From Promethearchaeum syntrophicum (GTDB taxonomy: Archaea > Asgardarchaeota > Lokiarchaeia > Sigyniarchaeales > Promethearchaeaceae): a stretch of 32,000 nucleotides of DNA. The translations under genes and the position numbers were made by a program. The stretch is taken from the NCBI RefSeq assembly GCF_008000775.2, contig NZ_CP042905.2, positions 1,500,001 to 1,532,000 on the forward strand. Direction: 5' to 3'. The notes beneath the pieces are model-generated. The model ran no database searches. It was not told the DNA's origin and saw only the letters and a program-made list of their open reading frames with translations. Positions 3,742 through 28,282 of the stretch are shown here, piece after piece (within the stretch, counting starts at the first letter, position 1; every line of letters starts with the position of its first letter).

Positions 3742-6700
3742 TTAATCCGAATTTAAATCTGAATTGCTTGAATTTTCCAACTTTTCGTTTATTTTTTTGT
3801 TTACAATAGATTCCAGTTTTTTCTTCTGATTCAAGCGGATCTTGATACCTATTATTCCAAAACCAAATGTCATAATTGTTCCAAGTATAGTCCAAAATAG
3901 ACCGTTCTTATAAAAAGGGACTTCATCACCAGGATCCATTGGATCAAGAGGATTTGTTTCATGCTCAATCTCCCATCCATCTTGATATCCATCTCCATCA
4001 GTATCTGCAATATTCGGATCGGTGTTATATTCATATTCTTGTAGATTTGTTAAAAGATCCAAATCTTTATCTTCATCTGCATCTTCAGCATCTCCAGCAT
4101 TAAATCCATTTTCATACTCCCATAGGTTAGGCATTCCATCTTCATCATAATCAAGTTCGGTATCATCAACCAGAGGATCAAGTCCACTGCTAACTTCATA
4201 GGCGTCATCCATTAAATCATTATCTGTATCATTATCAAAAGGATCTGTTCCCGCGTTAAACTCTTCTAAATTAGTGAGAGCATCTTCATCTTCATCATCA
4301 TTTGCATCATCTACAAGAGGGTCAAGTCCCTGCGTGATTTCATAACCATCATCCATTAAATCATTATCTGTATCATTATCAAAAGGATCTGTTCCTCTAT
4401 TAAATTCCTCTATATTCGTGAGTGTATCCGCATCTGCATCGTCATTAGCATCATTTACCAGCGGATCAAGTCCATTGTTTACTTCATAACCATCACCCAT
4501 TAAATCGTCATCAGTATCAATATTATTAGGATCTGTTCCTCTATTAAATTCCTCTATATTCGTGAGTGTATCCGCATCTGCATCGTCATTAGCATCATTT
4601 ACCAGTGGATCAAGATCATTGTCTACTTCATACCCATCATCCATTAGATCATCATCACTATCATCATCATTAGGATCAGTACCATGGACCTGAATTTCAT
4701 TATAATCATTAACATTGTCATCATCACTATCTGCATCAAAACGATCTGTAGGCTCATTTCCGTATCCATCATTTAATGTTCCGTAAACCTCCTCATAATC
4801 TAACAATCCGTCTGAATCCGAATCTTGATATAATGAAGAATCGGGATATTTCATGGGCAGATAATCGATACCTTTAGGTGTTATAATTACCGGATCATCG
4901 ATAATACCGTTTCCGTCAACATCCGGAGTTGTAACATTGTCCCAATAGTTTCCCTTTTCTGTATTGTTCCATGAATTACTTCCCAAGTCGTGTGCATGAA
5001 TGTTATTTGAATTAAATATATTTCCGTAAATTAAATTATAATTCACAGTGCTTTCATCTATAAAAATTCCTCTATCTGCATGATTTTGAATTCTATTATC
5101 ATAAAAAAGTCCTCCATTGCTTGAAGCAGTAAAATAAATGCCTCCTGCATTATTATCAAAAGTATTATTGAAAAATGTCGAATTTATGGATGTGTGAATG
5201 TAAGCTCCATATCCACCATTATTTTTAATTGTATTATTTTCAAAACTATTCCAATCTGCTCCATCTCTTAAATAAATACCTTGATACAAGTGATCTTCAA
5301 TAGTATTGTTAATAATCTCGTTTGAGGAAGACCCAAAGCGTAATTGAATTCCGTAACCATTATCCCTAATTTCACAATTTTTAATTTCATTATCTTCTGA
5401 ACTTCCTATATATACACCATAACCATTGTCTTTAATTTCACACTTGGTTATTATATTGTTTTGACCATTCTCTTCAATATTGATACCGTAAGTGCTCGTA
5501 AACATTTCATAATTATTATTAATAATGCAATTTTCAATAGTATTAAATGATGATCCATCCTGTAGAGAAATGCCTTCCCACCCATTACTCGCATTGCAAT
5601 CTTCAATAACAACATTATGGGAATTTATCAAAGTAATACCATGGGTTGCTTTAGATACATTTTGATTTTGAATTTGTGCAGTATCACACCCAATTAAGTA
5701 GATCTGACCCGCGTTTGTGAAATCTGAATTATCTAAATCATTCTGATTAACGTAATAATAGAATTTTCTTCCATTTACTGTATTATTTTCGGAATAAAAA
5801 GTGAGTGATTCTAATTCTTCATTTTCTCCAGAAATCTCATAGCCTCCACCGTTTATTAAAGCATTGCCTCCGAAAATTCCCCCATCAATGTTTACAATAT
5901 TAATTCCAATAACATTCTTGGCATCGACTGTATTATTATATACTTTCAGATCGGTAATTCCACTTAATGAGAGTCCATAACTCTGAAAGTGTCCATTTGT
6001 ATATACCGTGTTGTTTATAATAGTGAGATTAGTAATACTAGTTCTACAATCTATCCCTGTAGCAGAGTCTGCTGTTAAATCTATACTATTATTTTCGAGG
6101 AGAGTATCTTGGATATTTGAACGCACATTAATTCCATTATCATCACTTCCCGTGATTTGGTTATGTTTAACTTGGTTTCCATTTGAATACGTGTAAATAT
6201 CAATACCATCACCACAATCAATAATTGTGGTGTTAAGGATGAAATTATCATTAGAATACCAAGTCAAAAAAATTCCATCAAAAATATTAGACTCGAATGT
6301 ACTATCTGCAATCGTGTTATTCTTGCTATTCCAAGCTAGGTAGACACCAAAATCATTTGAAGATGACGTACAGTTTACTATTGTTCCGTTACATGTTTCT
6401 TCAAAATAGATTCCAGCATCTACAAACCCAGTAGCGGATACATTTTCAATTCTAAAATAATAATTTTTCGAATTCATGATTATTAAACCATCATCACTTC
6501 CAGGAGAGAGAATCAAATCTTCAATTACATAAGGATCCTCAAATGTTCCTGAACCGCTGCACCATGGTTGATTCACTGCCCAGTTCCAATTACCAGAATT
6601 TGAAGTGTTAAAGCCTTGTGTAGGATCAATAGTTAATGTGGTGTTAGTATAACTTGCATTTGGTTTATTTTGTGAGAAAGTAAAGTTAGATTCTAGTTCA

Positions 6701-6837
6701 TGATTGAACGCAACCAAAATAAGTGAATTTATTATCAAGCTTATCAAAATTATACCCAAGATTAGTGAACTCCTAGAAGATGATCTAATCTTTGGTCTCC
6801 AATTAAATTGTAATCTTATTTTCATGCATCCCATCAC
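3742..6837 (-). CDS. Large cell-surface protein: N-terminal signal/anchor, parallel beta-helix (PbH1/NosD-like) repeats, acidic calcium-binding-type repeats, C-terminal TM anchor
   Basis: The N-terminal hydrophobic segment is SLILGIILISLIINSLILVAF. There are many N-x-[ST] sequons and repeated NN.I..N...GI.L units typical of right-handed beta-helices. The Asp-rich region (DxDxDxxxD, thrombospondin-type-3-like) covers nt 3922-4824. The C-terminal TM is LFWTILGTIMTFGFGIIGIKI, followed by a Lys-rich tail. The track start at 6837 is GTG; ATGs lie at 6834 and 6825. Confidence 0.85.
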   Translation of the reverse strand: MMGCMKIRLQFNWRPKIRSSSRSSLILGIILISLIINSLILVAFNHELESNFTFSQNKPNASYTNTTLTIDPTQGFNTSNSGNWNWAVNQPWCSGSGTFEDPYVIEDLILSPGSDDGLIIMNSKNYYFRIENVSATGFVDAGIYFEETCNGTIVNCTSSSNDFGVYLAWNSKNNTIADSTFESNIFDGIFLTWYSNDNFILNTTIIDCGDGIDIYTYSNGNQVKHNQITGSDDNGINVRSNIQDTLLENNSIDLTADSATGIDCRTSITNLTIINNTVYTNGHFQSYGLSLSGITDLKVYNNTVDAKNVIGINIVNIDGGIFGGNALINGGGYEISGENEELESLTFYSENNTVNGRKFYYYVNQNDLDNSDFTNAGQIYLIGCDTAQIQNQNVSKATHGITLINSHNVVIEDCNASNGWEGISLQDGSSFNTIENCIINNNYEMFTSTYGINIEENGQNNIITKCEIKDNGYGVYIGSSEDNEIKNCEIRDNGYGIQLRFGSSSNEIINNTIEDHLYQGIYLRDGADWNSFENNTIKNNGGYGAYIHTSINSTFFNNTFDNNAGGIYFTASSNGGLFYDNRIQNHADRGIFIDESTVNYNLIYGNIFNSNNIHAHDLGSNSWNNTEKGNYWDNVTTPDVDGNGIIDDPVIITPKGIDYLPMKYPDSSLYQDSDSDGLLDYEEVYGTLNDGYGNEPTDRFDADSDDDNVNDYNEIQVHGTDPNDDDSDDDLMDDGYEVDNDLDPLVNDANDDADADTLTNIEEFNRGTDPNNIDTDDDLMGDGYEVNNGLDPLVNDANDDADADTLTNIEEFNRGTDPFDNDTDNDLMDDGYEITQGLDPLVDDANDDEDEDALTNLEEFNAGTDPFDNDTDNDLMDDAYEVSSGLDPLVDDTELDYDEDGMPNLWEYENGFNAGDAEDADEDKDLDLLTNLQEYEYNTDPNIADTDGDGYQDGWEIEHETNPLDPMDPGDEVPFYKNGLFWTILGTIMTFGFGIIGIKIRLNQKKKLESIVNKKINEKLENSSNSDLNSD
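4180..4611 (-). repeat. Three tandem 144-bp (48-aa) coding repeats inside the surface protein gene
   Basis: The units read DPLVNDANDDADADTLTNIEEFNRGTDP..DTD.DLM.DGYE....GL. Units at 4324-4467 and 4468-4611 share long identical DNA stretches (for example the run starting GGATCTGTTCC at 4385 and again at 4529). Confidence 0.85.
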
Positions 6838-7751: not shown

Positions 7752-8804
7752 TTAATCATTAGGATTATTTTCACAATAATCCACAATATATTCATTTTCA
7801 TTTCTTTTTCGGATGTTGTCTAAATAATTTAATTTTAATGCGGTTTCTTGTTTTGTAATAACAGAAAAGCCTAATTTTTCATTATTATACTTGGTTGGAC
7901 CTTTAATCTTAGTTCTTTTATTAATGAAATCAATGTGGTTTTTGATTCTTCTCTTTATGTAGTTATTCGCAATAGGTTTTAAATTTTCAATATTTGATTC
8001 TATAATATCTTTCATAGAAATATCTATTTCAATCCCAATACTATTCCGTTCGGAAGTCATTGCCGCAATACTAGTTGTACCAGTTCCTAGAAAAGGATCA
8101 AGAATTGTATCTCCCTTTGTTGAGAACATATTAGCTAATCTATATGCCAATTCAAATGGGAAGGCTGCACTTCTTTTTCTTGTGAGTTTATTATTTAGAT
8201 TTTGTGAAATTCCTTTAAAATCCCAGATATCAGAGAACCAGATATTTCTCTCTTCCCAAAAATATGAACTTTCCCTACGATTTATCTTCCGATTTTCTTC
8301 TTTGAAATCTCTTTTATTGCCTTTTCTAAATATTAAAATAAATTCATGTTCTAAAGTAACATACGCCCCTGGAGGAAGCATTCCAGATCCCATGAATTTA
8401 TTAGGGGCATTGGTCTGTTTTCTCCATATAATTTCTGGTAAAGATTGAAATCCTAATTCTAAAAAATGCTCAATAATTCTTGCATGAGATGGAAAAAGTT
8501 GGAATTTTTTATCTATTGTTCTTGTTGCATCACCTATATTAATGCAAACAATTCCTCCCGGAACAATAACTCTAAATAATTCACACCAGACTTTCTTTAA
8601 TTCTTCATGCATAAGCTGAAATGCTTTCTCACTTTCGGATTTTTCCAAGGCATCTTTAATTTTGGAATTTTGATTGCAGAAAATTTCATCCCACATTTCA
8701 ATCATTGGATACGGTGGAGAAGTAATTACCAATTCAATAGATTCATCTTTAATTTCTCCTAGATTATCCGCAGATTTGTAAATAAATTTATGCGATGTGT
8801 TCAT
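7752..8804 (-). CDS. Beta-class DNA methyltransferase (N4/N6 family, SPPY motif)
   Basis: Motif IV (VITSPPYP) is near the N-terminus and motif I (DPFLGTGTTSIAA) near the C-terminus, which is the beta-class permutation of PF01555-type enzymes. Confidence 0.85.
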   Translation of the reverse strand: MNTSHKFIYKSADNLGEIKDESIELVITSPPYPMIEMWDEIFCNQNSKIKDALEKSESEKAFQLMHEELKKVWCELFRVIVPGGIVCINIGDATRTIDKKFQLFPSHARIIEHFLELGFQSLPEIIWRKQTNAPNKFMGSGMLPPGAYVTLEHEFILIFRKGNKRDFKEENRKINRRESSYFWEERNIWFSDIWDFKGISQNLNNKLTRKRSAAFPFELAYRLANMFSTKGDTILDPFLGTGTTSIAAMTSERNSIGIEIDISMKDIIESNIENLKPIANNYIKRRIKNHIDFINKRTKIKGPTKYNNEKLGFSVITKQETALKLNYLDNIRKRNENEYIVDYCENNPND

Positions 8805-8825
8805 GCTTATCTGTCCTGAGATATT

Positions 8826-9872
8826 TTATGACTTAATAAATTTAAAAAGTGTGCTGTTTTTATCATTATCCAGATTTAGTTTTTTTCTTATTTTTTCAAC
8901 AATATTCGAACTAATATTCATTTTCTCAAGAGTATCTAGAAGAATTTCTAGATTGATTCTATCTTTTTTTGTTTTCAAATCTGATAATTCTGTGTTTGTG
9001 TTTTCTAATAATTGTAGTAATGTTTTAATTGATCTTTCATAATGAGGAATCAAAATAGGTGTTTTTGGTTCATATTGGCTCTTATTAATAATTGTTTCTT
9101 TGATGAGATTTTCACGAGGGAACATTTCATAACCATATCCTTGTAATCCTAAAGAATTAGCGGCAGCCAGTGTTGTTCCAGTTCCTAAAAATGGATCTAA
9201 AACGGATTTTGCATTAGGTACGGCTTTAATACAGGAATATGGTAATCCAATTGGAAATGGAGCATCATGACCTTTTTTAATTGTCGCTCCTGTAGTTTTT
9301 TCATAGCAAATATGAAGCAAATTTCCAGGATCCCGTAAATCTGAACTTCCATATCTTCCTATATTCGATTTATCTGCATATGGTATTCCAATTGCTTTGG
9401 GATTTAATTCATATTTTTTTTTATCTTTTACAAAGAGGAATATATGTTCCCATACATTATTAAAACGTTTGTTTCCTCCTGAAGGAGTATAATGTCCTTT
9501 TCCATATATAGATTTTACCCAAATAATATCTTGTATACGTATCCAACCTGCTTGTTCTGTAGAATTTGCTACTTTTTCTGATAAACCTTGAGTTGTTGCA
9601 GAATCGCCAATGTTTAAAAAAAACACTGCTTTTTCTGAAGAAACACGAAAGCATTCTTTCCAGACCCTATTCAACATTTGAAAATATTCTTTTTCTGGAA
9701 GTGAATCATTATATTTTACATTTGAATCAGAAGAATAATGTTTTCCACGATTATATGGGGGAGAAGTTATTATGATATCGATAGTGTCATCTTGAATTTC
9801 ATCCATTTTCTCTGATGATTTAAAATAAACTGTTTGATTGTCAATAACTAACATTTTCGAAGATCCATGCAT
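8826..9872 (-). CDS. Beta-class DNA methyltransferase (N4/N6 family, SPPY motif), paralogous to its neighbour
   Basis: Motif IV is IITSPPYN and motif I is DPFLGTGTTLAAA. The gene ends 21 nt before the start of the downstream methyltransferase gene on the same strand. Confidence 0.85.
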   Translation of the reverse strand: MHGSSKMLVIDNQTVYFKSSEKMDEIQDDTIDIIITSPPYNRGKHYSSDSNVKYNDSLPEKEYFQMLNRVWKECFRVSSEKAVFFLNIGDSATTQGLSEKVANSTEQAGWIRIQDIIWVKSIYGKGHYTPSGGNKRFNNVWEHIFLFVKDKKKYELNPKAIGIPYADKSNIGRYGSSDLRDPGNLLHICYEKTTGATIKKGHDAPFPIGLPYSCIKAVPNAKSVLDPFLGTGTTLAAANSLGLQGYGYEMFPRENLIKETIINKSQYEPKTPILIPHYERSIKTLLQLLENTNTELSDLKTKKDRINLEILLDTLEKMNISSNIVEKIRKKLNLDNDKNSTLFKFIKS

Positions 9873-11836: not shown

Positions 11837-13558
11837 TTATATTAATAGCTTTTCTATTCGAATTCTTATCCCATATTCTAAAAGCTGTAGAAGATAACTC
11901 TCGGCACTCAGTATTGAACTATATCTTTGCTCAAACTTTCGGCGAATGTAAGGTGAGCGCGGTTCCCAAGAAACCTTATTCCACACCTTTTTGCGTTCTT
12001 GTTCAAGCATCATTCGCATCCGAGCTACATGCCATCTGTTATAAAGTATCATTCCCAATTCTAAATTCCACTGACGTTGGGTAGACTTGCGACTCCTTGA
12101 TAATCGAACAAACTTAGCTTTACCCTCTTTAAACCCATTTTCAATAGACCATCTTTCATGATACACTTGAGCAAGTTTAATGAAATAATCTGTGTTATGT
12201 TTAATCGCTTCATCTATTGTCGATGATATGGTAAAAAACATAAGAGAATTAAGCATCAATGTTTGATTTTTCTTTAATTTCTTGAGATACTCCATAGACT
12301 TTATTATCTGCTTATATTTCTTATAAAGTTGTGAATTTCTGAACTTAGTCCTTTTTCTTTGAGTTATTTTTTTTATTATAGAAGGATTCTTGATTCCTGC
12401 TTGTTTTTGAAGATCAATGTATTCTTTCTGATATTCATCAATTCTATCTTCGGAGGACTTGATATTTTTCTTAGTAACCATCCATTCATGTTTAAGATCT
12501 TTGAGTTTTCGATTCCTGTTTGTCTGATATCCATCCACAACAGCCACTAATACAACAGGAATATGATACATTGAATCATATGTTTTCATTTCAGATGCTT
12601 CACAATATCCTTTTAATGAAGGATGCGTATATTTCGATAAATTAATATAATCCATAAATACTTCTTTTGAATTTGGGTCTTCTAAGAATGCAACCTTTTT
12701 TCTAACCTTTTCCCTGGCAAATTTTTTTGGTACAATAACTCTAATATTATCGTTATGCTTACATTTACTACTAATTTGATTGAAATATGCAGCTGTAAAT
12801 AATTCACCATTATAATACCCTCGATCAGCGTCAATAAACTTTACTTCAGATCCTGCACCTTCAACTATCTTGCAAGAGTTTTGTAACTGCCCAATAAAGG
12901 CTTGAATTGTAGTATTCTCGTATTTAGGTTTATGGTAATTCTGATGTAGTGTACTTATAAAGAGTTGATTGGTGCAATCATACACAGATGAATAAGTAAA
13001 GCCTCGTTTCCACGTATTATTTTGACCAATATGGACAAATGAATATTGATCATTCAAGTATTTAGAACGTGTTTCTTCAGGCGTCGTGTCGATAGCAAGG
13101 ATTACCTCCTTGGATTTACCGTTAAACTCATTTAATTCTTTCATACATGCGGTATAGTTTTCATTAAGTTTATCATCAAGATTGGGTTTACTATCTTGGA
13201 TGACATTGTCAGTAACTGCTTGACGACTTGCGGATAGAGGAAATTTCCTTGATTCTGGCATAAAAATCTCAATTGCATTATTTAATGCTGTGTCTGTATC
13301 TTGCGATGCCTTGATGGACGACAACACCGAATAAATAGATGTTGAAATTACGTTCAAGTGTTTCTTTCCAATTTCCAATGATGATTTAGTCAACATTGAG
13401 GAGATCAGAGTCAAAATAACCCGTTCTTTTGTATTTTGTGAGGAATTTACCTTCCTTTTCTGTTTACTCGTTAATCCGAGCAAATCAAGTTGTTCCGAAA
13501 AGACTAAATGGAGTTGTTCATTATCTAAAGATGAGATGCTACTTACCTCTTGGTACAT
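11837..13558 (-). CDS. IS4-like DDE transposase
   Basis: Candidate DDE residues lie in LAIDTTPE and FIDADRGYY. YHERWSIENGFKEGK fits the Y(2)R(3)E(6)K signature of IS4-type transposases. Confidence 0.8.
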   Translation of the reverse strand: MYQEVSSISSLDNEQLHLVFSEQLDLLGLTSKQKRKVNSSQNTKERVILTLISSMLTKSSLEIGKKHLNVISTSIYSVLSSIKASQDTDTALNNAIEIFMPESRKFPLSASRQAVTDNVIQDSKPNLDDKLNENYTACMKELNEFNGKSKEVILAIDTTPEETRSKYLNDQYSFVHIGQNNTWKRGFTYSSVYDCTNQLFISTLHQNYHKPKYENTTIQAFIGQLQNSCKIVEGAGSEVKFIDADRGYYNGELFTAAYFNQISSKCKHNDNIRVIVPKKFAREKVRKKVAFLEDPNSKEVFMDYINLSKYTHPSLKGYCEASEMKTYDSMYHIPVVLVAVVDGYQTNRNRKLKDLKHEWMVTKKNIKSSEDRIDEYQKEYIDLQKQAGIKNPSIIKKITQRKRTKFRNSQLYKKYKQIIKSMEYLKKLKKNQTLMLNSLMFFTISSTIDEAIKHNTDYFIKLAQVYHERWSIENGFKEGKAKFVRLSRSRKSTQRQWNLELGMILYNRWHVARMRMMLEQERKKVWNKVSWEPRSPYIRRKFEQRYSSILSAESYLLQLLEYGIRIRIEKLLI

Positions 13559-18343: not shown

Positions 18344-19768
18344 TTGATTAAGATTAGTTTAAAAGAAAGAAGAAAATTCGGTCAGCATTTCACTTCACCA
18401 GTGATATTTGAATTGTATATACTTCCTGAGATAAAACATAACCTTCATAATTATGTTTGGGTTGACTTATTTGCTGGATCAGGTAATTTAATTTTACCCA
18501 TTTTAAAAACAATTCCGAAAAAGCAACGAGTCGATTTTTTTAAAGATCATATCTATTTATTTGATGTTCAAGAGCAATGCATTGAAGAAACAATTAAACA
18601 TGCTGTAAGCTTAGGTATCCCACGAGATATCGCTAAAAAAAATATTATTCTTAACGATTCACTTAGATCATTTCCAAAAATTTTATCGAAATCACATCTA
18701 AAATTTCCAATTTTCCATATAACAAATCCTCCTTATCTATATTTAGGATACATCGTGAAAAGTAAAGAAACTCAGAAATATATCAGTCTTTTTCAAGGAG
18801 ATAATAAAGGATACCAAGATTTATACCAACTAGCGTTAATAAATGATCTTAGAAATAACGTAAAAGACATGATTTACATAATCCCCTCCAATTTTCTCTT
18901 TGGAAACTCTGTCTCAAATAAAATTCGCGATGATTTATTGAAATTTTATCGAATTAAAAATATGTATATCATTGAAAAAAAAATTTTCAAATATACAGGA
19001 ACTAATGTAATGATTACTTTCTTTGAAAGGAAGGATGAAGTGAAAAATGAGATATTAGAGTTTAAGGGTGTAAAAATTGGGGAAGATAAAGAAATTGAGA
19101 AAGTTAAAACTTACAAATTAAGCCCGAAATACCATTATAAAGCCGGATTCGAATTTGAAGATTTTATCGAAAAGATGAAAGCAAAAACACCATTAAAATC
19201 ATCATACTATCTTAAAATCTCTGAAATTAATTCTTGTTTGGGTAGTACTAATGTTAATTTAATCGATTCAAATGATTTCAACGGTTCTTCTTATAGAAAA
19301 ATTAATTTCCCTGTTAATCAAGAATTATTCGAAAAAATAAAAACTAATCCCCTTTGGATTAGAACTGTTGATACAGGATCATGGAATGGAAGAGCTGGGT
19401 TATATTCAATTAATGAAATTTTCAATGTAGATGGAATTCTTGTGACTAAAAATACTTACCGAACAAACCCCATTCAGATATTCTTCCATACACCTATTAC
19501 TGTTGATGAACAATTCCTACTAAAAGATTATTTTAACCTTATCCTGGAATATTTGAGAAAAATAACGGATAGTGAGTTTATGACTACCTATAAATATTCA
19601 GGAGCGAATTATACGAGAAAGTATTTCGGGCTTTCACAAGCAAAAAAACTTATCGAAACATTTCCAATTCGCGTTTTAAATGAAGCTCAACTGGAAAAAT
19701 TCAAAAAACTAATAAAATCAAAGGATTCCAAAAGTTTACTCTTTTTCTTAAAAAATAATAGAAATTAA
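18344..19768 (+). CDS. Gamma-class N6-adenine DNA methyltransferase-like protein with a ~230-aa uncharacterised C-terminal region
   Basis: FGQHFTSP lies near the N-terminus, motif I is VDLFAGSGNL and motif IV is FHITNPPYLY, in that order (gamma class). The start is TTG and there is no in-frame ATG nearby. Confidence 0.7.
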   Translation: MIKISLKERRKFGQHFTSPVIFELYILPEIKHNLHNYVWVDLFAGSGNLILPILKTIPKKQRVDFFKDHIYLFDVQEQCIEETIKHAVSLGIPRDIAKKNIILNDSLRSFPKILSKSHLKFPIFHITNPPYLYLGYIVKSKETQKYISLFQGDNKGYQDLYQLALINDLRNNVKDMIYIIPSNFLFGNSVSNKIRDDLLKFYRIKNMYIIEKKIFKYTGTNVMITFFERKDEVKNEILEFKGVKIGEDKEIEKVKTYKLSPKYHYKAGFEFEDFIEKMKAKTPLKSSYYLKISEINSCLGSTNVNLIDSNDFNGSSYRKINFPVNQELFEKIKTNPLWIRTVDTGSWNGRAGLYSINEIFNVDGILVTKNTYRTNPIQIFFHTPITVDEQFLLKDYFNLILEYLRKITDSEFMTTYKYSGANYTRKYFGLSQAKKLIETFPIRVLNEAQLEKFKKLIKSKDSKSLLFFLKNNRN

Positions 19769-21361: not shown

Positions 21362-21802
21362 TTAAGGCAAAGTTAATAGATTTAATCCTTTAATTCTCTT
21401 AAAATGATTTATATTACCTGTTAAAAGATCCCTATATGAAGATTTGAGGATGATGCTAGCAATTATGCAATCGAAATTTTCTATTTTTTTACCTTGAGAC
21501 ACTAATTGGTGATAGATTTCAGCACTTTTTATTGCTGTTTGGCTAGTCATATTATATACTTTTAAATTTTGGACTAAATTATTCAATGCTTGTCTTTCGT
21601 GTTTTAATTTTTCTTGCGCTACTTTTTGTTTTGAATATTCTAATTGATAAAACCCAAAATAAAGTTCATATACATTTGCTGATGTCGTTGCAATTTGATC
21701 ATATTGAGAAAAAATTGAAGATAAATCAACAGAATCAATATTTTCATGCAAAATGCCAATTAACACATCTGTATCTACAAATAAAACGTTTTGCAAAACC
21801 AT
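21362..21802 (-). CDS. vapC: PIN-domain ribonuclease toxin VapC
   Basis: The N-terminus is LFVDTDVLIGIL, with acidic residues in PIN spacing. It lies 12 nt downstream of a small antitoxin gene. Confidence 0.8.
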   Translation of the reverse strand: MVLQNVLFVDTDVLIGILHENIDSVDLSSIFSQYDQIATTSANVYELYFGFYQLEYSKQKVAQEKLKHERQALNNLVQNLKVYNMTSQTAIKSAEIYHQLVSQGKKIENFDCIIASIILKSSYRDLLTGNINHFKRIKGLNLLTLP

Positions 21803-21814
21803 TTTAAAAATCTC

Positions 21815-22069
21815 TTAGTTTTCTCCATTAATTCGAGTGTTGAAAGATTTCTGCATTTGTTTCCTGGATTCTGCATAGGTTTCTATTGCAAATTTTTCAT
21901 ATTCAGGATCGTCTGATTTAGCAGCGCCATAAAATGAAAGAATTTTCTCTACATTTGAAGTGTTATCCAATAGACGTTCTATAATGTCGGAAAAACTTTC
22001 ATTGGTTTTTTTAGCTTTTTTTAAACGATTATACACATCTTGTTTAATTGAAATTTGTTGCGAAGCCAT
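21815..22069 (-). CDS. vapB: VapB-type antitoxin (archaeal DUF217/PF02697-like)
   Basis: ISIKQDVYNRLKKAKKTNESFSDIIERLL matches the characteristic family N-terminus. Confidence 0.75.
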   Translation of the reverse strand: MASQQISIKQDVYNRLKKAKKTNESFSDIIERLLDNTSNVEKILSFYGAAKSDDPEYEKFAIETYAESRKQMQKSFNTRINGEN

Positions 22070-22321
22070 ATCAATATATAGACAATATATATATTTATTT
22101 TTTTCTGGTTCTTTTATTTATATTTATGAATATTATTATTTTCAAGGGAAAAAAAAATACGAAATAATAATTACAATATTAAATAAACAAAAAATAATCC
22201 AATCCCATGCTACCTTTACCAAATGTTCTGAATTTTGTTATATACAATTTATATTTTCAAATCCTTTCTCAAGTTAATTTGTAAAGCCTCTAAAATAACT
22301 TATCAAATTTTTTAATTTTTA

Positions 22322-22353
22322 TAGTGTGTCATGAAGGTTTTTCTTACACACTA
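22322..22353. promoter_or_regulatory. Inverted repeat TAGTGTGT-16nt-ACACACTA upstream of the peptide array; third half-site TACACACT at 22419-22426
   Basis: Read directly from the sequence: 8-bp arms at 22322-22329 and 22346-22353, with the same half-site recurring 66 nt downstream. Confidence 0.3.
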
Positions 22354-22498
22354 ATTTTTCTTCAAAATAATGACTTAATTTTGATTATATTCGATTTATT
22401 AATGATACATATTTTTATTACACACTTTTTACGCAACCTTTAAATACTAGAGTCACCTTATTATAATTAGAACTTAGAAATTAAATCGGTGGAAAAAA

Positions 22499-22588
22499 AT
22501 GAAAAAAAATCGAAACTTATACGCAAAGAAAAACGCTTTTGATATGATGGTTCAGAATCCCGGATTAATCAGCTCAATCCGAGTATAA
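22499..22588 (+). CDS. Lysine-rich small peptide, copy 1 (29 aa)
   Basis: MKKNRNLYAKKNAFDMMVQNPGLISSIRV; GGTGG plus an A-run precedes the ATG. Differences from the other copies are synonymous or conservative. Confidence 0.65.
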   Translation: MKKNRNLYAKKNAFDMMVQNPGLISSIRV

Positions 22589-22636
22589 AATTAATAAATA
22601 ATTTTTTAAAATAAAAAACTTAACAGTGAAAAAAAA

Positions 22637-22726
22637 ATGAAAAAAATATTAAAACTTTACATTAAAAAAAACGCCTTTGATCTGATGGTAGAGAATCCCG
22701 GATTAATCAGCTCAATCCGAGTATAA
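22637..22726 (+). CDS. Lysine-rich small peptide, copy 2 (29 aa)
   Basis: MKKILKLYIKKNAFDLMVENPGLISSIRV; AGTGA plus an A-run precedes the ATG. Confidence 0.65.
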   Translation: MKKILKLYIKKNAFDLMVENPGLISSIRV

Positions 22727-22773
22727 AAATAATCAATAATTTTTTTAAATAAAAATCTAAACAGTGAAAAAAA

Positions 22774-22863
22774 ATGAAAAAAACTCAAAAAAAATACATT
22801 AAAAAAAACGCCTTTGATCTGATGGTAGAGAATCCCGGATTAATCAGCTCAATCCGAGTATAA
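22774..22863 (+). CDS. Lysine-rich small peptide, copy 3 (29 aa)
   Basis: MKKTQKKYIKKNAFDLMVENPGLISSIRV; AGTGA plus an A-run precedes the ATG. Confidence 0.65.
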   Translation: MKKTQKKYIKKNAFDLMVENPGLISSIRV

Positions 22864-22911
22864 AAATAATCAATAATTTTTTTAACTAAAAATCTAAACA
22901 GGGGAAAAAAA

Positions 22912-23010
22912 ATGAAAAATATGAAAAAAACTCAAAAAAAATACATTAAAAAAAACGCCTTTGATCTGATGGTAGAGAATCCCGGATTAATCAGCTCAAT
23001 CCGAGTATAA
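22912..23010 (+). CDS. Lysine-rich small peptide, copy 4 (32 aa, or 29 aa from the ATG at 22921)
   Basis: MKNMKKTQKKYIKKNAFDLMVENPGLISSIRV; relative to copy 3 it has an in-frame 9-nt 5' extension, so the frame is preserved. Confidence 0.65.
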   Translation: MKNMKKTQKKYIKKNAFDLMVENPGLISSIRV

Positions 23011-23188
23011 TATCAATAAAAATTTTTTCAAATTATATTGGGATGCAAAATGGCAAAATGAACATGTTAGGCATGTAATAACTAACAAATAATAAAAATA
23101 ATAATAATAACGCTCATAAAAATAATAAAATAAAAAAAACAACAATTATGATTATAAAAATAATAAATTGCAAACAAAAAATTGGTAG

Positions 23189-24364
23189 ATGATAATAATG
23201 ATAGAAAAAGATGACGATTATGATTTTGATGATGATTTAGACGAAGAAGACGAAGAAGACGAAGAAGAAGAAGAAGAAGACGAAGAAGACGAAGAAGAAG
23301 AGGATGATGATTATATGGATGACGAAGATGAAATTTCGGAAAGCCCAATGAAAATCTCGGGATCTATGAAACTTCCTGGGGGTAAAATAAATCGGGACTT
23401 AAGAGTCTCTGGGTCAGTTACGATAGATAGTGATTTTGAATGCGAACACTTGCGCGCATCAGGTTCTGTTTCTGCTTTAGGAAACATTACTGCCCATAAT
23501 GGAGTGAGATCCAGTGGATCATTTAATTGTAGAGGCAGTCTGTTCGCCGATGATGGAGTTGTAAAATTAACTTCTTCTTCGAATATCGAAGGAGATGTTA
23601 TACTTGAATGCATGATTAAAGCCTCAGGTTCGTTGCGCATTGGGGGAAGTTTACATGCTGAAGATTTAGCAAGGTTTAGCTCGAGTGTTTCCATCGGTTC
23701 AGATGCTGTGATAGATGGAGATATCAAAGTATCCGGAGGCTTCTCCTGTGGCGGATTATTAACTGCCGAAAAAAGCGCGCATTTTAGTGGAAGTGCTGAA
23801 ATTGGAAAGGATTGCGTTATTAATGAGAATCTTCATTCTTCAGGATCTTTTAATTGTAATGGTATGCTTCACGTAGATGAAAATACTCATTTCAGCAGTT
23901 CAGCATCGATTAAAAATGATGTTTTAATAAGTGGGTTTCTACATAGTTCGGGTTCCTTCAGCTGTGGGAGCAGTTGTGAAGCAGAAGCTGGTGTTAAATT
24001 TACAGGATCAAGTAAAATTAAAGGAAATTTGAGTTCTGAGAATACTATTGATATAATGGGTAGAGCAATAATAGGCAATAACGTAACCGCATCCAACCTT
24101 TATATTGGAGTGCATTCCAAAGGAATGAAAACACATTTGGAAAGTAGAGCATCGCGGATAGAGGGTAATGTCTCTGTTCAAAATCAAGTTCAATTGGAAG
24201 ATGCTTATGTAAATGGGGATCTTCGAGCTAGAACTGTGGATTTACTTAAAAATTCGGGTGTTGTAGGAACAATTTATTATGCTGATGAATTTAAAGCTCA
24301 TAAAGATGCAAAATATGGAGATGTTGTAAGAATTGATTCTGAAGATTTAGAGGAGAAAGAATAA
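23189..24364 (+). CDS. Bactofilin-like (polymer-forming cytoskeletal, DUF583-type) beta-helix protein with a poly-acidic N-terminal tail
   Basis: Residues ~8-48 are almost entirely D/E. After that, 13 [ST][GS][SG] triplets are spaced 17-18 residues apart (once 20), for example ISGSM, VSGSV, ASGSV, SSGSF. This matches the ~18-residue winding of bactofilin-type helices and the KISGSG-type openings of polymer-forming cytoskeletal proteins. Confidence 0.7.
   Translation: MIIMIEKDDDYDFDDDLDEEDEEDEEEEEEDEEDEEEEDDDYMDDEDEISESPMKISGSMKLPGGKINRDLRVSGSVTIDSDFECEHLRASGSVSALGNITAHNGVRSSGSFNCRGSLFADDGVVKLTSSSNIEGDVILECMIKASGSLRIGGSLHAEDLARFSSSVSIGSDAVIDGDIKVSGGFSCGGLLTAEKSAHFSGSAEIGKDCVINENLHSSGSFNCNGMLHVDENTHFSSSASIKNDVLISGFLHSSGSFSCGSSCEAEAGVKFTGSSKIKGNLSSENTIDIMGRAIIGNNVTASNLYIGVHSKGMKTHLESRASRIEGNVSVQNQVQLEDAYVNGDLRARTVDLLKNSGVVGTIYYADEFKAHKDAKYGDVVRIDSEDLEEKE
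23210..23332 (+). repeat. GAA/GAC/GAT-rich coding low-complexity tract (poly-D/E tail)
   Basis: There are runs such as GAAGAAGACGAAGAAGACGAAGAAGAAGAAGAAGAAGACGAAGAAGAC. The tract also generates the artefactual antisense ORF 23082..23348 (LLRLLR...). Confidence 0.85.
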
Positions 24365-24394
24365 ATAATAATTAGAAAAAAAAGGTGAAAAAAA

Positions 24395-25396
24395 ATGGCA
24401 CATTATGAAGAAGAAGAAGAAATTAAAAGATTGGGTGAAACAATTGATAGAATCAATGAACTAAATGAAAAAACATCTGATTTAATCGAAGATGCCAAAT
24501 CATACGCTCCTGATGCTGCTGATGTTGCAGATGATAAACTAGAAAATGCTAGAGAAAAATTAGATACTGCAAAAGAAAAACTGGGCAATACATGGGAGAT
24601 TTTACATGATTTTAAGGAAAGGGCTAGATTGGCTGCAGAAATCTATGATGAAGCACAAATGAGTGGAAATCCACAAATGGATGCCAAAGTTGAAAAAGCA
24701 AGATATACTGCTGAACGAACAAAAGCGAAACTTGAAGCATCAATTATGAAAACCTTAAGCAGTTTGGATAAAGCCAAAAATGCATCAGAAAAGGCTAATT
24801 CACGAGCGAATATTGCAGCTATTAAATCAAATGCAGCCGAATCCCGAGAAAAGGGAAAGAAAGTTCGTATAAATTTTACATTACCTGATGATATGAAACA
24901 ATCTTGGAAAGGTTTAGCAGATGACCTTAACATCTCAATTTCTCAAATGATAAGAACGGCAATGGATTCTTTTGAGAAAAATATAGACAATTTAGGGGAA
25001 TTAGGGGAATTAGGAGACTTTCATATTGAAAAAAAGAAGAAAAAGAAAGGAAAATTTAATGATCTAGAGCAAAGAATTGAGCGATGGGGAGATAAATTAG
25101 AAAAAAAATTTGAGCAAAAATATGAAAAATCTGGACAAGAAGGTGTTAAATTTTCAGAAGAAAACAAAGAAAAATTAAAGAAAAGATTAACCGGGTTCAT
25201 TAAAATTAATCAAAATATTCCTGTGGATAAATTTGCTCAAATATTAAATTGCTCAATTGCTCAAGCAGAGAATTTGATTTATGAATTAGCCGCAGAGGGA
25301 ATCGAAGGTTTTATGGAAAAAGGGGTATTCCGATATGAGAGCTCTACCGAAGAAGTTATTTCAGAACTTTTTAAAATCTTAGATCGGGAAGAGTAA
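24395..25396 (+). CDS. Coiled-coil protein with a central ribbon-helix-helix-like segment and a C-terminal winged-helix-like domain
   Basis: GGTGA-A8-ATG lies 30 nt after the preceding stop. The N-terminal ~150 aa are helical and rich in heptad-like A/K/E. KVRINFTLPDDMKQSWKGLADDLNISISQMIRTAMDSF looks like the strand-helix-helix of the CopG/RHH fold. IPVDKFAQILNCSIAQAENLIYELAAEGIEGFMEKGVFRY looks like a winged helix. Confidence 0.6.
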   Translation: MAHYEEEEEIKRLGETIDRINELNEKTSDLIEDAKSYAPDAADVADDKLENAREKLDTAKEKLGNTWEILHDFKERARLAAEIYDEAQMSGNPQMDAKVEKARYTAERTKAKLEASIMKTLSSLDKAKNASEKANSRANIAAIKSNAAESREKGKKVRINFTLPDDMKQSWKGLADDLNISISQMIRTAMDSFEKNIDNLGELGELGDFHIEKKKKKKGKFNDLEQRIERWGDKLEKKFEQKYEKSGQEGVKFSEENKEKLKKRLTGFIKINQNIPVDKFAQILNCSIAQAENLIYELAAEGIEGFMEKGVFRYESSTEEVISELFKILDREE

Positions 25397-25537
25397 TATA
25401 ACTAAATTTCCGAGTTTTTTTTTTTATTTCTTAAGGCATTTTCTGAAATTATAGTGTTATATATTTCATACATCTCTAATTTGAACAGATCTCATTATAA
25501 ATTAGCAAAAATTAAAAAAAATGGTTAAAAATAGAAT

Positions 25538-28282
25538 TTAATCTGAAAAACCAAGATATTCTAAAATCTGATTTAATTTTTCTTTATTTTTAGAATCTTC
25601 AGGATCAGATTTTAATTTCTTTTTTAGAAATACAATTTCACCTGCTTTTTGCTCTATAGCGTAAAGTAATGTCTTCCAATTGTTAAAATCGTTCATTAAT
25701 GAAGCAATAATTTCATCATTAGCGAAATTTTTAAATATTTTTTCATCTTTATCTTCTTTCTTATCTCTTCTTGTTTTGGTCTTCACTGATTTTCGTGCAG
25801 ATTTGTTAATCCGGTTGTTCGCATTGTTAATTATCCTTTTTAACACAGATTGGTCCTGCAAGATTTTTCGAATTGTTTCTTCAAGAATTTCTTCATAAGA
25901 GTCAATATCATTGGGTAATATATCGTTTTGGAGCAAAATATCACGTAACATAATGTATGTCCTTTCTAGATCCTCCAAAAATGGTGAAATCTCTTTTTTA
26001 AAATGTTCGCGTTCATTGTCCAGGTCTGCGTCTCCTAAAATTGAATCTGATTGAAAAACATGACTTTCTTGGTCATACACTCCAGTTAATCTCTTTTGTT
26101 CCATTAAATCTAGTAAAATTTTTTCAAGATACATAATACCTTCTTCACTTAATGTAATTTCTTCAATAACTGATGAATTGAGATCAATATAGCTTTTGGC
26201 TTCTATCATTCGTTCTTGAATTCCTCTTTCAGTTAGGAATTTTTCATTTTCCTTAATCCATAATCCGCTTATTTCTCCATTTTTGAGTAAATTTTCCAAA
26301 ATATTAATAAGAATGTGAGAGGAACACTTATATTTAGATACAAGTTCATTAATTTTCATTACATTGAGATTAAGAACATTTTCTTTAATTGATTGAGATA
26401 ATTTATTTTGTTCCTCATCGATTCTTTTCTTTGAAAAAATAATTTTATCATGGATAATTAAATACCCATCAGGTTTCTCTAAAGAATCGACAAATTTTAG
26501 AAATTCTTTCTGATCCATCTGTAAATCTCGTAACAGTGGATTAATTAAAAACTCATCTTTCTCAGAAAGCATTTTACCGATTTTATTGAGTTTTTCATCA
26601 ACTTTTTGAGAAATTTCATCCTTATCAACCTGAAGTTCGTCTGCTAAAGAATCTATTAATTTTTCTCTTTTAACAGCATCTAATTCATTTTGAATTGAGG
26701 AAATTCGCTTTTTGACATATTTAGAGAAATAGAAATTCTTTTCTTCTTTATTCCAGAAGCCATTTTTATGTTCAAATATTTTTTTGGTGATTTTATGTAA
26801 AATCGAAGGATGAATACCTAACTTTTCGGCTCTTTGTTCGACATTACAATCCCCAATTTGTTCGCAAATCCTTAATTCTTGTTGGATATTGGTAGTTCCT
26901 AAGTGGGTTAACCAAGAATGTTTATAGTGATATTTTGTAAAAATTTTTGTTCTACAGTATTCTTCCAATTTATAGAAATTTTCTTGAGTAAATCCTGATT
27001 TGTAAGGGCTAAGATCAATGATATTTGATCGATAACTTTCTTTTTCTATTTCTTGCGTGATTGCAGAAAAAGTATGGTATTTTGACTTCTCTAAATTATA
27101 TATTCCAAGAATTCCTTGAGTTTCAATTTCATTGATTAATTTATGGATGGTATCTTTATCGATTGATTTTGAATAATTTAAAATATCAATAGAGCCATAT
27201 TGTTGTAAACGTTGAAGAAATTCCTTTTTAAGGTAAGACCAATCATAATAATATTTTTTAGTAAAATACCCTCTAATAATGTGCTTCTCGAGCATACTTT
27301 TTATTAAAATCATTACGACTGCATTATTTTTTATGCCTAAATCATTGAATATTCTCACAATCTCATCCAATTTTATTTTTCGCTGAGAAAGGAATGATAT
27401 AATTTTCCCTTTTTCTAATTCAAGCAATTTTTTATGATTTTTATCAATGAATACTAGTGTATAAATCGTATCTTCATCAATCTGGCTGAGAAGATAATTT
27501 TCCACCTCTTCCAGAGATAAATTTTCCTGTTCCGAAATAATATTTAGATCTGTGAAGCGAATCAAAGTTGGGCGATTATCTATTTCTCTCAATATTTGAT
27601 TTTTTGACCAATTGGAATTCTCTCGTTTTTTAAGTAAAGGGATTTCTTTTTCAATTAAATTCAATATGATATCACTTATTTCAGCAGATTTATTATTCTC
27701 ATAGATGTCTCTCAATTGTTGGATATATTTTATGAGTATGATCAGGGACATTTTCGGCTGCAATCTTGAAAGTATATTTTGAGTTGTTTTTAGAACCTCT
27801 GAATTTGATTCGTCTTCTAAAATTTTGATAAAAATATTCAATTTCAATAAAAGCTGAGTATCAAATGAATCAGGAAATTGTTCTAAAAAGAAGCAAATAT
27901 TTTGCCGAGTTTCCGATTTTGAATCATATAACAGCTCAAGAAAACCATTTAAATGTGTCATATCTGAGTAATCTTCTTGAGATAAGAAATTCAGTAAACA
28001 AGAGCCATAAATAATTACCGCATTGATCTTTTCTTTTGTTTTATCCCCTTTAATGTAAGGGTCTATATCTGCAAATATTGAATGTGAAAAAGATTCGGGC
28101 ATTTCTTCTGCAATTAGTGAGAGAATGTAGAGAGCAGTATTTGATTCTTTTTTCAGCCATTTAATAACAGCATTTGAATGTGTCTCAAATTTGTTCCATT
28201 TCTCTCTTTCGTAATCTTCATTAATATTATTTATCAATTTAATTAATTTTTTATCCGTTAAATTTGGTATTTCAATAAACAT
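25538..28282 (-). CDS. Large (914 aa) uncharacterised protein: HEAT/ARM-like N-terminus followed by repeated winged-helix-like modules and coiled-coil segments
   Basis: It is a long uninterrupted ORF. At least five segments follow the pattern (label)-helix-x-G-x-I-x-G, for example SMLEKHIIRGYF, INEIETQGILGIYN, LENLLKNGEISGLWI, LLDLMEQKRLTGVYD. I recognise no catalytic motif. Confidence 0.6.
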   Translation of the reverse strand: MFIEIPNLTDKKLIKLINNINEDYEREKWNKFETHSNAVIKWLKKESNTALYILSLIAEEMPESFSHSIFADIDPYIKGDKTKEKINAVIIYGSCLLNFLSQEDYSDMTHLNGFLELLYDSKSETRQNICFFLEQFPDSFDTQLLLKLNIFIKILEDESNSEVLKTTQNILSRLQPKMSLIILIKYIQQLRDIYENNKSAEISDIILNLIEKEIPLLKKRENSNWSKNQILREIDNRPTLIRFTDLNIISEQENLSLEEVENYLLSQIDEDTIYTLVFIDKNHKKLLELEKGKIISFLSQRKIKLDEIVRIFNDLGIKNNAVVMILIKSMLEKHIIRGYFTKKYYYDWSYLKKEFLQRLQQYGSIDILNYSKSIDKDTIHKLINEIETQGILGIYNLEKSKYHTFSAITQEIEKESYRSNIIDLSPYKSGFTQENFYKLEEYCRTKIFTKYHYKHSWLTHLGTTNIQQELRICEQIGDCNVEQRAEKLGIHPSILHKITKKIFEHKNGFWNKEEKNFYFSKYVKKRISSIQNELDAVKREKLIDSLADELQVDKDEISQKVDEKLNKIGKMLSEKDEFLINPLLRDLQMDQKEFLKFVDSLEKPDGYLIIHDKIIFSKKRIDEEQNKLSQSIKENVLNLNVMKINELVSKYKCSSHILINILENLLKNGEISGLWIKENEKFLTERGIQERMIEAKSYIDLNSSVIEEITLSEEGIMYLEKILLDLMEQKRLTGVYDQESHVFQSDSILGDADLDNEREHFKKEISPFLEDLERTYIMLRDILLQNDILPNDIDSYEEILEETIRKILQDQSVLKRIINNANNRINKSARKSVKTKTRRDKKEDKDEKIFKNFANDEIIASLMNDFNNWKTLLYAIEQKAGEIVFLKKKLKSDPEDSKNKEKLNQILEYLGFSD

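Follow-up and report, generated by a model that had tools for sequence, protein, structure and literature searches.

A stretch of 32,000 nucleotides (nt) of the archaeon Promethearchaeum syntrophicum, hereafter the window (NCBI RefSeq assembly GCF_008000775.2, contig NZ_CP042905.2, positions 1,500,001 to 1,532,000 of the forward strand), was analyzed with a focus on a block of genes at 22300-28282. In the original prediction, made from the sequence alone, this block was described as a module of four parts: an array of cationic peptides, a filament-type protein with an acidic tail, an adaptor with ribbon-helix-helix (RHH) and winged-helix (wH) character, and a scaffold with multiple wH domains. 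All four elements were located at their predicted positions, and a Pfam scan of the four parts found no enzyme domain, in agreement with the view that the block lacks an enzyme-like member. The G+C content is about 30% across the window and falls to 23% over the peptide array. Comparison of Asgard loci indicates that short open reading frames (ORFs), a bactofilin gene, the adaptor gene and an upstream DNA motif constitute a conserved unit across Asgard phyla. The features of the block are listed below, with protein lengths in amino acids (aa).

22323-22426: cluster of three TACACAC-type heptad copies, candidate operator for the RHH segment of the adaptor
22323-22331, minus strand: heptad copy TGACACACT
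22344-22352 and 22418-22426, plus strand: heptad copies TTACACACT
22439-22446, plus strand: TATA-like sequence TTTAAATA; with the Shine-Dalgarno (SD)-like GGTGG at 22488-22492, the putative promoter and leader of short ORF 1, kept in loci L003, L004 and L010
22475-23076, plus strand: four tandem direct DNA repeats of 137-147 nt each, with one short ORF per unit
22499-22588, plus strand: short ORF 1, 29 aa, MKKNRNLYAKKNAFDMMVQNPGLISSIRV
22637-22726, plus strand: short ORF 2, 29 aa
22774-22863, plus strand: short ORF 3, 29 aa
22912-23010, plus strand: short ORF 4, 32 aa (29 aa if the ATG at 22921 is used), QEE16120.1, DSAG12_01949
23189-24364, plus strand: bactofilin, 391 aa
24395-25396, plus strand: adaptor, 333 aa, QEE16122.1 (DSAG12_01951)
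25538-28282, minus strand: 914-aa protein, QEE16123.1 (100% identical), a neighbour and not a core member

The bactofilin-adaptor operon in Asgard archaea

More than 40 Asgard loci, individually designated by L numbers, were compared. Gene linkage was counted with our own hidden Markov models over 36 species-level loci (one genome per species), and motifs and short ORFs were counted over 40 loci. The adaptor family contains more than 100 members. All members with a source name are Asgard (Promethearchaeota, Thorarchaeota and Hodarchaeota), and a genome scan added a Hermodarchaeota locus. The bactofilin gene is directly beside the adaptor gene on the same strand in 30 of the 36 loci, with the gene order reversed in L012 and L013 (Harpocratesius). 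No bactofilin is beside the adaptor in L. ossiferum, L014, L018, L022, L032 and L041. When the four predicted parts were examined for co-occurrence, the short ORFs, the bactofilin and the adaptor stayed together, and the 914-aa protein did not. One locus, L038 (DATKTW010000144.1), is labelled Candidatus Nanopelagicaceae bacterium and contains the same archaeal operon with peptides nearly as in L039; it is therefore probably mis-binned.

The filament-type protein reaches 50.2 bits with the Pfam Bactofilin family (PF04519), for which the cut-off is 27.9, and four orthologues match at 32-45 bits. Bactofilins are nucleotide-independent, filament-forming scaffolds, and many bacterial bactofilins carry a short N-terminal membrane-targeting peptide. 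The Asgard orthologues begin directly at MKISGSG without such a peptide. In the window protein, an acidic tail occupies the N-terminus instead (aa 1-53, nt 23189-23347), and the bactofilin region after it is an extended beta-helix. The match above the cut-off and the 53-residue tail with a net charge of -37 verify the predicted acidic-tailed beta-helix protein. A match of this protein to GPIHBP1 was rejected as a compositional effect of the acidic tail only. In most bactofilin orthologues, a C-terminal tail with the pattern (N/H)EPIQI..E(E/D)L is found in the last 20 or so residues, after the beta-helix; this tail is a candidate site for docking of the adaptor.

The adaptor was modelled as a monomer via AlphaFold, with an overall predicted local distance difference test (pLDDT) value of 82. 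Residues 5-154 fold into three long helices with pLDDT above 95. An RHH-like segment at residues 156-200 is followed by a lysine-rich, disordered linker, and residues 255-332 form a PCI-type wH with pLDDT above 90. The 36 members of the family were then scanned against Pfam. PCI was matched in 35 of them (E<=1, best 1.8e-5), RHH_5 in 23, RHH_1 in 15, RHH_3 in 7 and Apolipoprotein in 25, and the best RHH E-value in the family was about 2e-5. The window adaptor alone gave weak matches to RHH_1, RHH_5 and Apolipoprotein. The RHH and PCI identities are supported by the family as a whole, in agreement with the predicted RHH/wH adaptor.

Residues R158, S181, S183 and R187 are invariant in the adaptor family; I159 and N160 are nearly invariant and are followed by T/S162. 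R158 and N160 are located in the beta-strand, S181 and S183 at the start of helix 2, and R187 thereafter. The hallmarks of RHH proteins, namely alternating polar or basic residues in the beta-strand and G/N-x-S at the start of helix 2, are present in the adaptor. The family profile aligns to residues 2-41 of CopG (E 0.09 against the PDB), and the conserved residues line up with CopG R4, T6, T8, S27 and S29. In our reading of this alignment, the conserved adaptor residues correspond to the positions at which CopG contacts bases and phosphates.

The wH of the adaptor is preceded by the disordered linker, the RHH segment and the three-helix bundle; the helical-repeat region that stands right before the wH in lid, CSN and eIF3 subunits was not found. 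BAR-like membrane binding by the adaptor bundle, suggested by fold matches to Lsp1/Pil1 (E 0.06), is unlikely because the charge of the bundle domain is -7 to -29.

Micropeptide genes and the upstream heptad motif

In each of the four repeat units in the window, a short ORF is accompanied by a TATA-like stretch rich in A/T and has an oligo-T run past its stop. Copies 2-4 are nearly identical, with the non-coding parts included. The peptides follow the pattern MKK..Y.KKNAFD[LM]MV[EQ]NPGLISSIRV and carry a net charge of +4 to +6. By exact-sequence look-up in the protein collection, the 32-aa copy (QEE16120.1) was found and the three 29-aa copies were not. The sequence at 22439-22492 probably acts as the promoter of short ORF 1.

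In nearly all other loci, too, ORFs of 23-35 aa that start with ATG precede the operon on its own strand. All 3,090 small ORFs with an ATG start and a length of 18-50 aa on either strand of 630 kb were searched with profiles built from the short-ORF families. At E<1e-5, the profiles matched about 60 of them in 32 of the 40 loci, and all but one of these share the strand of the operon and lie 17-601 nt in front of it. One to four micropeptide genes are present per operon. The families and their pairwise nucleotide differences at codon positions 1, 2 and 3 are as follows.

Family A, MTYNKKIELxDIKCKIYSQVLT..: 308, 279 and 627
Family B, MKIxNGYEDLExVKxNTYSKLLF..: 229, 157 and 308
Family C, MNKKSLDGKELIIIKNMYYAHRF: 129, 121 and 243
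Families D and D2, ..ENSYEYYKKIKAQFDA..AFIGK.YY: 87, 60 and 141 (family D)
Family W, the family of the window: 172, 122 and 255
Further families: E, and F (44 aa)

In all five families compared, the third codon position differs about twice as often as position 1 or position 2. Motifs similar to GGAGG or GGTGG are found 6-10 nt ahead of nearly every short-ORF ATG, and a T-run is found past each stop. By this substitution pattern and these signals, the short ORFs are protein-coding genes. Structured RNA or pure DNA iterons in place of peptide genes were rejected because there was neither a fold signal (z -1.05 to +0.57) nor an Rfam match, and because of the coding substitution pattern and the SD motifs. 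Comparison of the peptide families via hhalign gave 84% (E 7e-6) for A and B and 94% for D and D2. Family B was weakly related to D, D2 and E, with E about 1e-3. Families W and C were not tied to any other peptide family by hhalign (E of at least 0.013 for W).

The original prediction included small charged partners in amplified copy number. This agrees with the four basic copies in the window and with a copy number of W that varies from 2 to 4 within the clade: three copies are present in L010 and L003, and two in L004 and L049. The copy nearest to the bactofilin is shortened in L003 (4857-4931), L004 (15177-15251) and L010 (1278-1364), with the pattern MKKNQK.YIK..[AST][FY]DSG[FL].[FY]PFRA. 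The corresponding copy in the window strain is full-length; therefore, gene conversion is suggested. In L012, L013 and L050, where the adaptor precedes the bactofilin, an extra type of short ORF with KKYYY[AG]HD was seen, by eye only, just upstream of the adaptor (e.g. MFKKIKKYPNEKYYYGHDCFQTDLSY). Hydrophobic-Tyr-X or Tyr forms the C-terminus of many peptides in families D, C and E and among those of the L. ossiferum short ORFs (..LYF, ..MYY, ..RYY, ..QYY, ..LIIY). These ends recall the HbYX tails of proteasome activators; the W peptides of the window end in SIRV. No natural fusion of a peptide to the bactofilin or the adaptor was found among 273 retrieved proteins.

The upstream motif was identified by an unbiased enrichment test of 7-mers in the 700 nt upstream of the operon in the 40 loci. 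TACACAC/GTGTGTA was the top-enriched 7-mer, present in 33 of the 40 loci against 1.05 expected. Its density upstream of the operon is 2.84 per kb compared with 0.04 per kb elsewhere, a 72-fold difference. At least two TACACA copies within 120 nt, about 50-750 nt upstream of the operon, were found in about 34 of the 40 loci; such clusters are also present in L. ossiferum and in loci without a recognised short ORF. Only four such pairs occur elsewhere in the loci examined. These were rejected as members of a regulon: they are weak hexamer pairs without the full consensus AATACACAC(T), and most are inside predicted ORFs. The spacing between heptads peaks at 10-11, 31-36 and 67-77 nt. The orientation is mostly direct, and some pairs are palindromic. 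The sites adjoin or just follow the TATA box of the first short ORF.

Beyond the three heptad copies at 22323-22426, the 32 kb window contains no exact copy. The copy at 22418-22426 ends 12 nt before the TTTAAATA box. Four Prometheoarchaeum relatives show no change in the two direct heptads, the TATA box or the GGTGG leader, while the DNA further upstream could not be aligned. The upstream inverted-repeat motif noticed in the original prediction is real; it corresponds to two heptad copies of the conserved cluster (22323-22331 on the minus strand and 22344-22352).

RHH proteins typically bind short repeats in helical phase, and the RHH of the adaptor is the only DNA-binding domain consistently linked to the motif; on these grounds, together with the conserved CopG-like residues, the adaptor probably binds the heptads. 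A second conserved DNA-binding neighbour was sought as the reader of the motif, and none was consistent among the loci. A 144-aa regulator of the RHH_8 family lies directly upstream of the TACACA cluster in L028 (7977-8411), in this locus only.

Proposed mechanism and competing readings

Taken together, we propose that the operon encodes a bactofilin scaffold that is subject to autoregulation, with an adaptor of its own that binds DNA and with basic micropeptides as cofactors; we give this reading about an even chance. The data establish the linkage of the genes, the coding character of the short ORFs, the motif with its specificity and the domain identities; we infer that the RHH segment binds the motif, that the peptides bind acidic surfaces, and that the bactofilin polymerises to fulfil a cellular role. 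The bactofilin scaffold would be co-expressed with its adaptor, behind one to four genes, led by SD motifs, for basic micropeptides of 23-34 aa. The adaptor would dimerise through the RHH segment and bind the AATACACAC(T) heptads, which are spaced by about 10-11 bp and multiples thereof in front of the first micropeptide promoter. Since the adaptor would thereby bind heptads before its own operon, the operon would be autoregulated and the scaffold would be tied directly to DNA. A parallel in the literature is SegB of Metallosphaera, where an RHH domain and a beta-helix are joined in one protein. The acidic helical bundle and the PCI-type wH would remain free to contact the bactofilin and the peptides. 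The micropeptides would be made in excess from their own promoter/terminator units, bind acidic surfaces (the bactofilin tail in the window clade and the adaptor N-domain elsewhere) and tune assembly. The charge data fit such a pairing of peptide and acidic surface. W-type peptides and the acidic bactofilin tail co-occur in all six loci of the window clade and nowhere outside it. Outside this clade, the acidity is in the adaptor N-domain (-13 to -29, compared with -7 in the window).

Several observations weigh against this proposal. The co-occurrence of acidic tail and basic peptide is weak evidence because it comes from a single lineage and goes back to one evolutionary event. Homology of the W peptides to the other families could not be demonstrated via hhalign; therefore, the peptides of the window are positional counterparts of the others and not demonstrated homologues, and their equivalence would be one of position, size and charge. 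The adaptor and the short ORFs occur without an adjoining bactofilin in six loci, so the partner of the peptides may be the adaptor or neither protein. The RHH-like segment reaches a pLDDT of only about 70 in the monomer model. The window adaptor is below the Pfam cut-offs for both RHH_1 (17.2 bits, cut-off 20.5) and PCI (13.1 bits, cut-off 22). In 29 loci outside the window clade, among them most other lineages, 1-6 tandem genes of the major facilitator superfamily (MFS_1/MFS_3, about 425 aa) follow the operon on the same strand, for example at 10064-12684 in L006 and also in L019, L028, L031 and L037, with a gap to the adaptor stop of down to 3 nt. In 7 loci, the adaptor and MFS genes are separated by a Peptidase_M29 gene. 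Neither gene type is found in the window. This run-on hints at a membrane or transport role beyond the model. No description of this operon was found in the searchable literature, and its locus tags are in no searchable paper.

A partition-like DNA anchor was considered as the first alternative. The TACACAC cluster would be centromere-like, the RHH adaptor would bind it, and the bactofilin polymer would position the region as an anchor or track, comparable to the positioning of ParB by BacNOP-PadC or the binding of ParM by ParR/parC. Type II and type Ib partition cassettes are composed of repeated cis sites, a filament gene and an RHH gene, and the Asgard locus has the same layout. The motif cluster is specific to the locus within the 600 kb examined, and its sites are in helical-phase spacing. 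The RHH-beta-helix fusions of Metallosphaera SegB and the link of bactofilin to ParABS point in the same direction. However, bactofilin is not an NTPase. Cis repeats and an RHH adaptor were found, but an NTP-driven filament or ParA ATPase was not, and no motor of the ParA, ParM or TubZ type is present in the operon. The sites also overlap or flank the TATA box in the fashion of an operator, and six loci have no adjoining bactofilin. This alternative is regarded as unlikely.

The short ORFs could instead be regulatory upstream ORFs with T-run attenuators, or could encode exported signal or antimicrobial peptides with an MFS exporter and an RHH regulator. They always lie between the operator and the operon with T-runs after them, and they are kept where the bactofilin is absent. 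The MFS genes, of a 'secretion effector' type, in 29 loci and the Peptidase_M29 gene in 7 of them would suit export, and the near-identical tandem copies recall arrays of peptide precursors. On the other hand, the window clade has the most peptide copies and yet no MFS gene. Neither a leader or cleavage motif nor a modifying enzyme was seen for the window peptides. When the features of ribosomally synthesized and post-translationally modified peptides and of bacteriocins were looked for, the tandem peptides were present in the window, and a modifying enzyme and an exporter were not found there. The entire peptide, beyond a few codons, is conserved in amino acids across phyla, and every copy in the window has its own TATA-like stretch and terminator. 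This explanation is distinctly improbable.

The four-part module of the original prediction, in which the 914-aa protein would pair with the adaptor through wH contacts as in UFL1-DDRGK1, in addition to the bactofilin and the peptides, was also weighed. The 914-aa model (pLDDT 82) contains a HEAT/ARM solenoid at aa 1-235, about eight tandem wH domains at aa 240-745 and long C-terminal helices. The top PDB fold matches via Foldseek are UFL1 (8qfc_B, E 6e-6; 8ohd_A, 1.5e-5; 8b9x, a UFL1-DDRGK1 chimera, 1e-4), and HEAT proteins come next. The best PDB fold match of the adaptor is 8qfc_D (E 0.015) of the same UFL1-ribosome complex, and the adaptor wH can be superposed on the chimera 8b9x with 3.0 A over 64 columns. 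When 1.84 billion representatives were searched by profile, only 130 relatives of the 914-aa family were identified. The remote relatives P0260, P0247, P0262 and P0267 match Pfam E3_UFM1_ligase and PCI above the cut-offs, and three of the four also match DDRGK. By these fold and remote profile matches, the 914-aa protein belongs with the UFL1/DDRGK-like wH proteins of Asgard archaea, as a divergent relative fused to a HEAT domain. The existence of such Asgard proteins has been reported; UFL1 and DDRGK1 have been traced to Asgard archaea, and UFM1 and UFC1 are reported to be eukaryote-only (Picchianti 2023). The 914-aa and adaptor genes are 0.1-2.5 kb apart in Prometheoarchaeum, L049, L. ossiferum and L051, all of one adaptor subfamily.

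Nevertheless, the evidence from the gene neighbourhood stands against this module. Within the 36-locus scan, the 914-aa family adjoined the adaptor only in Prometheoarchaeum and L. ossiferum. The adjacency carries little weight because the surrounding region is syntenic in the lineages concerned, with AIRC, DNA methylases, a hybrid kinase (HK-RR), DinB, HAD and HDAC shared. In about 30 other lineages with the operon, no 914-aa homologue was found within 10 kb. The distant homologues (26% identity) have a HAD hydrolase gene 19 nt upstream and following genes unrelated to the adaptor. The Pfam scan of the 914-aa protein gave no match; E3_UFM1_ligase (PF09743) and DDRGK (PF09756) were matched by neither the 914-aa protein nor the adaptor, and UFM1, UBA5 and UFC1 are not encoded in the window. 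The hhalign values of the adaptor were 1.6% against a DDRGK-type protein and 9% against the 914-aa protein, and homology of the adaptor wH to either at the sequence level was not supported. The winged-helix flavour that the two proteins were predicted to share is thus found at the fold level only. The 914-aa protein was rejected as a core member on synteny, and the four-part module is considered very doubtful.

A chance juxtaposition of unrelated genes with a recent local duplication has next to no probability: repeat copies 2-4 are nearly identical, non-coding parts included, as after a recent duplication, but linkage, short ORFs and motif kept in more than 40 loci of several phyla already contradict it. 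A defence-like role, named only as speculation in the original prediction, received no signal in the PADLOC comparison, which gave one weak match of unknown function (E 0.0023) and otherwise nothing.

Some further genes were observed around the 914-aa homologues and the operon. In L. ossiferum (L002, CP104013.1, 12859-14370) and L049 (3373-4890), the adaptor and the 914-aa homologue are separated by a gene of 503-505 aa without a Pfam match; this gene is not in the window. An actin-family gene fused to zinc-ribbon motifs (507 aa) was seen a few kb from a distant 914-aa homologue in L005 (2881-4404) and L046 (33-341). In L051 (7343-9288), bactofilin is missing next to the adaptor, which is followed by two MscS-type channel genes and then by the 914-aa homologue. 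In L016, L017, L033 and L042, the operon is preceded at 600-850 nt by the gene of a ubiquitin-family protein of 110-113 aa (Pfam ubiquitin, 26.8 bits), which ends exactly in ...LLIPASTAG. The gene shares the strand of the operon and stands immediately before the motif cluster. Its presence is intriguing given the DDRGK1/UFL1-like winged helices nearby.

The block was predicted to sit between a vapBC pair and ordinary metabolic genes. The vapBC pair forms its 5' flank, and a small membrane protein, a HAD hydrolase and a histone-deacetylase-family gene form its downstream flank. Searches of the window for tRNA and Rfam families found none. The flanking pair and the other features of the window are as follows.

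21362-22069, minus strand: vapBC pair
1955-3490: IS110-family transposase
3742-6837: surface-type protein of 1031 aa with beta-helix/NosD/TSP3 character
7752-9872: two adjoining N6/N4 DNA methylase genes, an arrangement partly common to L. ossiferum
11837-13558: weak DDE-transposase-like ORF
18344-19768: N6_Mtase-like ORF; a restriction partner for the methylases is not obvious

Significance and comparison with known systems

No closer relatives of eukaryotes than the Asgard archaea are known, and the Asgard cytoskeleton is central to models of eukaryogenesis. Work on the Asgard cytoskeleton has so far centred on actin, tubulin and ESCRT homologues. The adaptor that combines RHH with a PCI-type wH, the micropeptide gene set and the sharply specific cis motif appear not to have been described previously, in line with the original claim, for which the searchable literature contained no system of this composition. 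Because of their shortness, most of the micropeptide genes are missing from the sequence collection, in which only the 32-aa copy was found. P. syntrophicum and L. ossiferum are both cultured Asgard species, and the operon is now experimentally approachable in them. The questions raised are whether the adaptor binds AATACACAC, whether the peptides bind the acidic tail, and where the polymer is placed relative to the nucleoid and the protrusions. The UFL1-like multi-wH family is now placed in Lokiarchaeia, which bears on the reported Asgard origin of UFL1/DDRGK1. A wider reading, which we regard as speculative and rather unlikely, is that of a lineage-wide, motor-less cytoskeletal device for DNA anchoring or positioning. 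In this device, the bactofilin would be coupled to the heptad array by the RHH/PCI-wH adaptor under micropeptide control. The PCI/DDRGK1-like wH and, in some lineages, the UFL1-like neighbour would point to the prokaryotic setting out of which eukaryotes recruited their wH scaffolds.

Among the known systems, BacNOP-PadC-ParAB of Myxococcus xanthus similarly has a bactofilin gene beside a dedicated adaptor gene that links the polymer to DNA-associated machinery, with an enzyme-free core. PadC has a ParB-like domain and acts via ParA/ParB, whereas the Asgard adaptor would use its own RHH and PCI-type wH without ParA/ParB. The Asgard operon also adds the micropeptide genes and the locus-specific heptad array, in an archaeal host.

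The RHH centromere-binding and repressor systems ParR/parC-ParM, omega/heptads-delta, ParG and archaeal SegB resemble the Asgard unit in the short direct or inverted repeats upstream, the RHH in the operon and the adjoining filament or positioning partner. The Asgard unit differs in that it is without an NTPase motor, its partner is a static bactofilin, and its RHH is inside a multidomain protein of 300-350 aa. The nearest archaeal parallel is the fusion of an RHH domain to a beta-helix in Metallosphaera SegB orthologues.

The halofilins HalA/HalB of Haloferax (PMC11459167) are likewise archaeal cytoskeletal proteins with a bactofilin fold, and some halofilin homologues occur in Asgard archaea according to the same paper. 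Papers that pair bactofilin with Asgard archaea or Lokiarchaeota mention only these homologues. No adaptor, micropeptides or operator are described for the halofilins, unlike in the Asgard operon. The archaeal operon cdrS-ftsZ2 of Halobacteria likewise encodes an RHH protein together with a cytoskeletal protein. CdrS, however, is a stand-alone small regulator without a wH or bundle domain, its partner is a tubulin homologue, and there are no micropeptides.

UFL1-DDRGK1, the scaffold of the UFM1 ligase in eukaryotes, is similar to the 914-aa protein in its tandem wH array, and the adaptor wH resembles that of the UFL1-DDRGK1 chimera. Compared with this scaffold, the 914-aa protein adds a HEAT domain, and the adaptor adds the RHH and the three-helix bundle.

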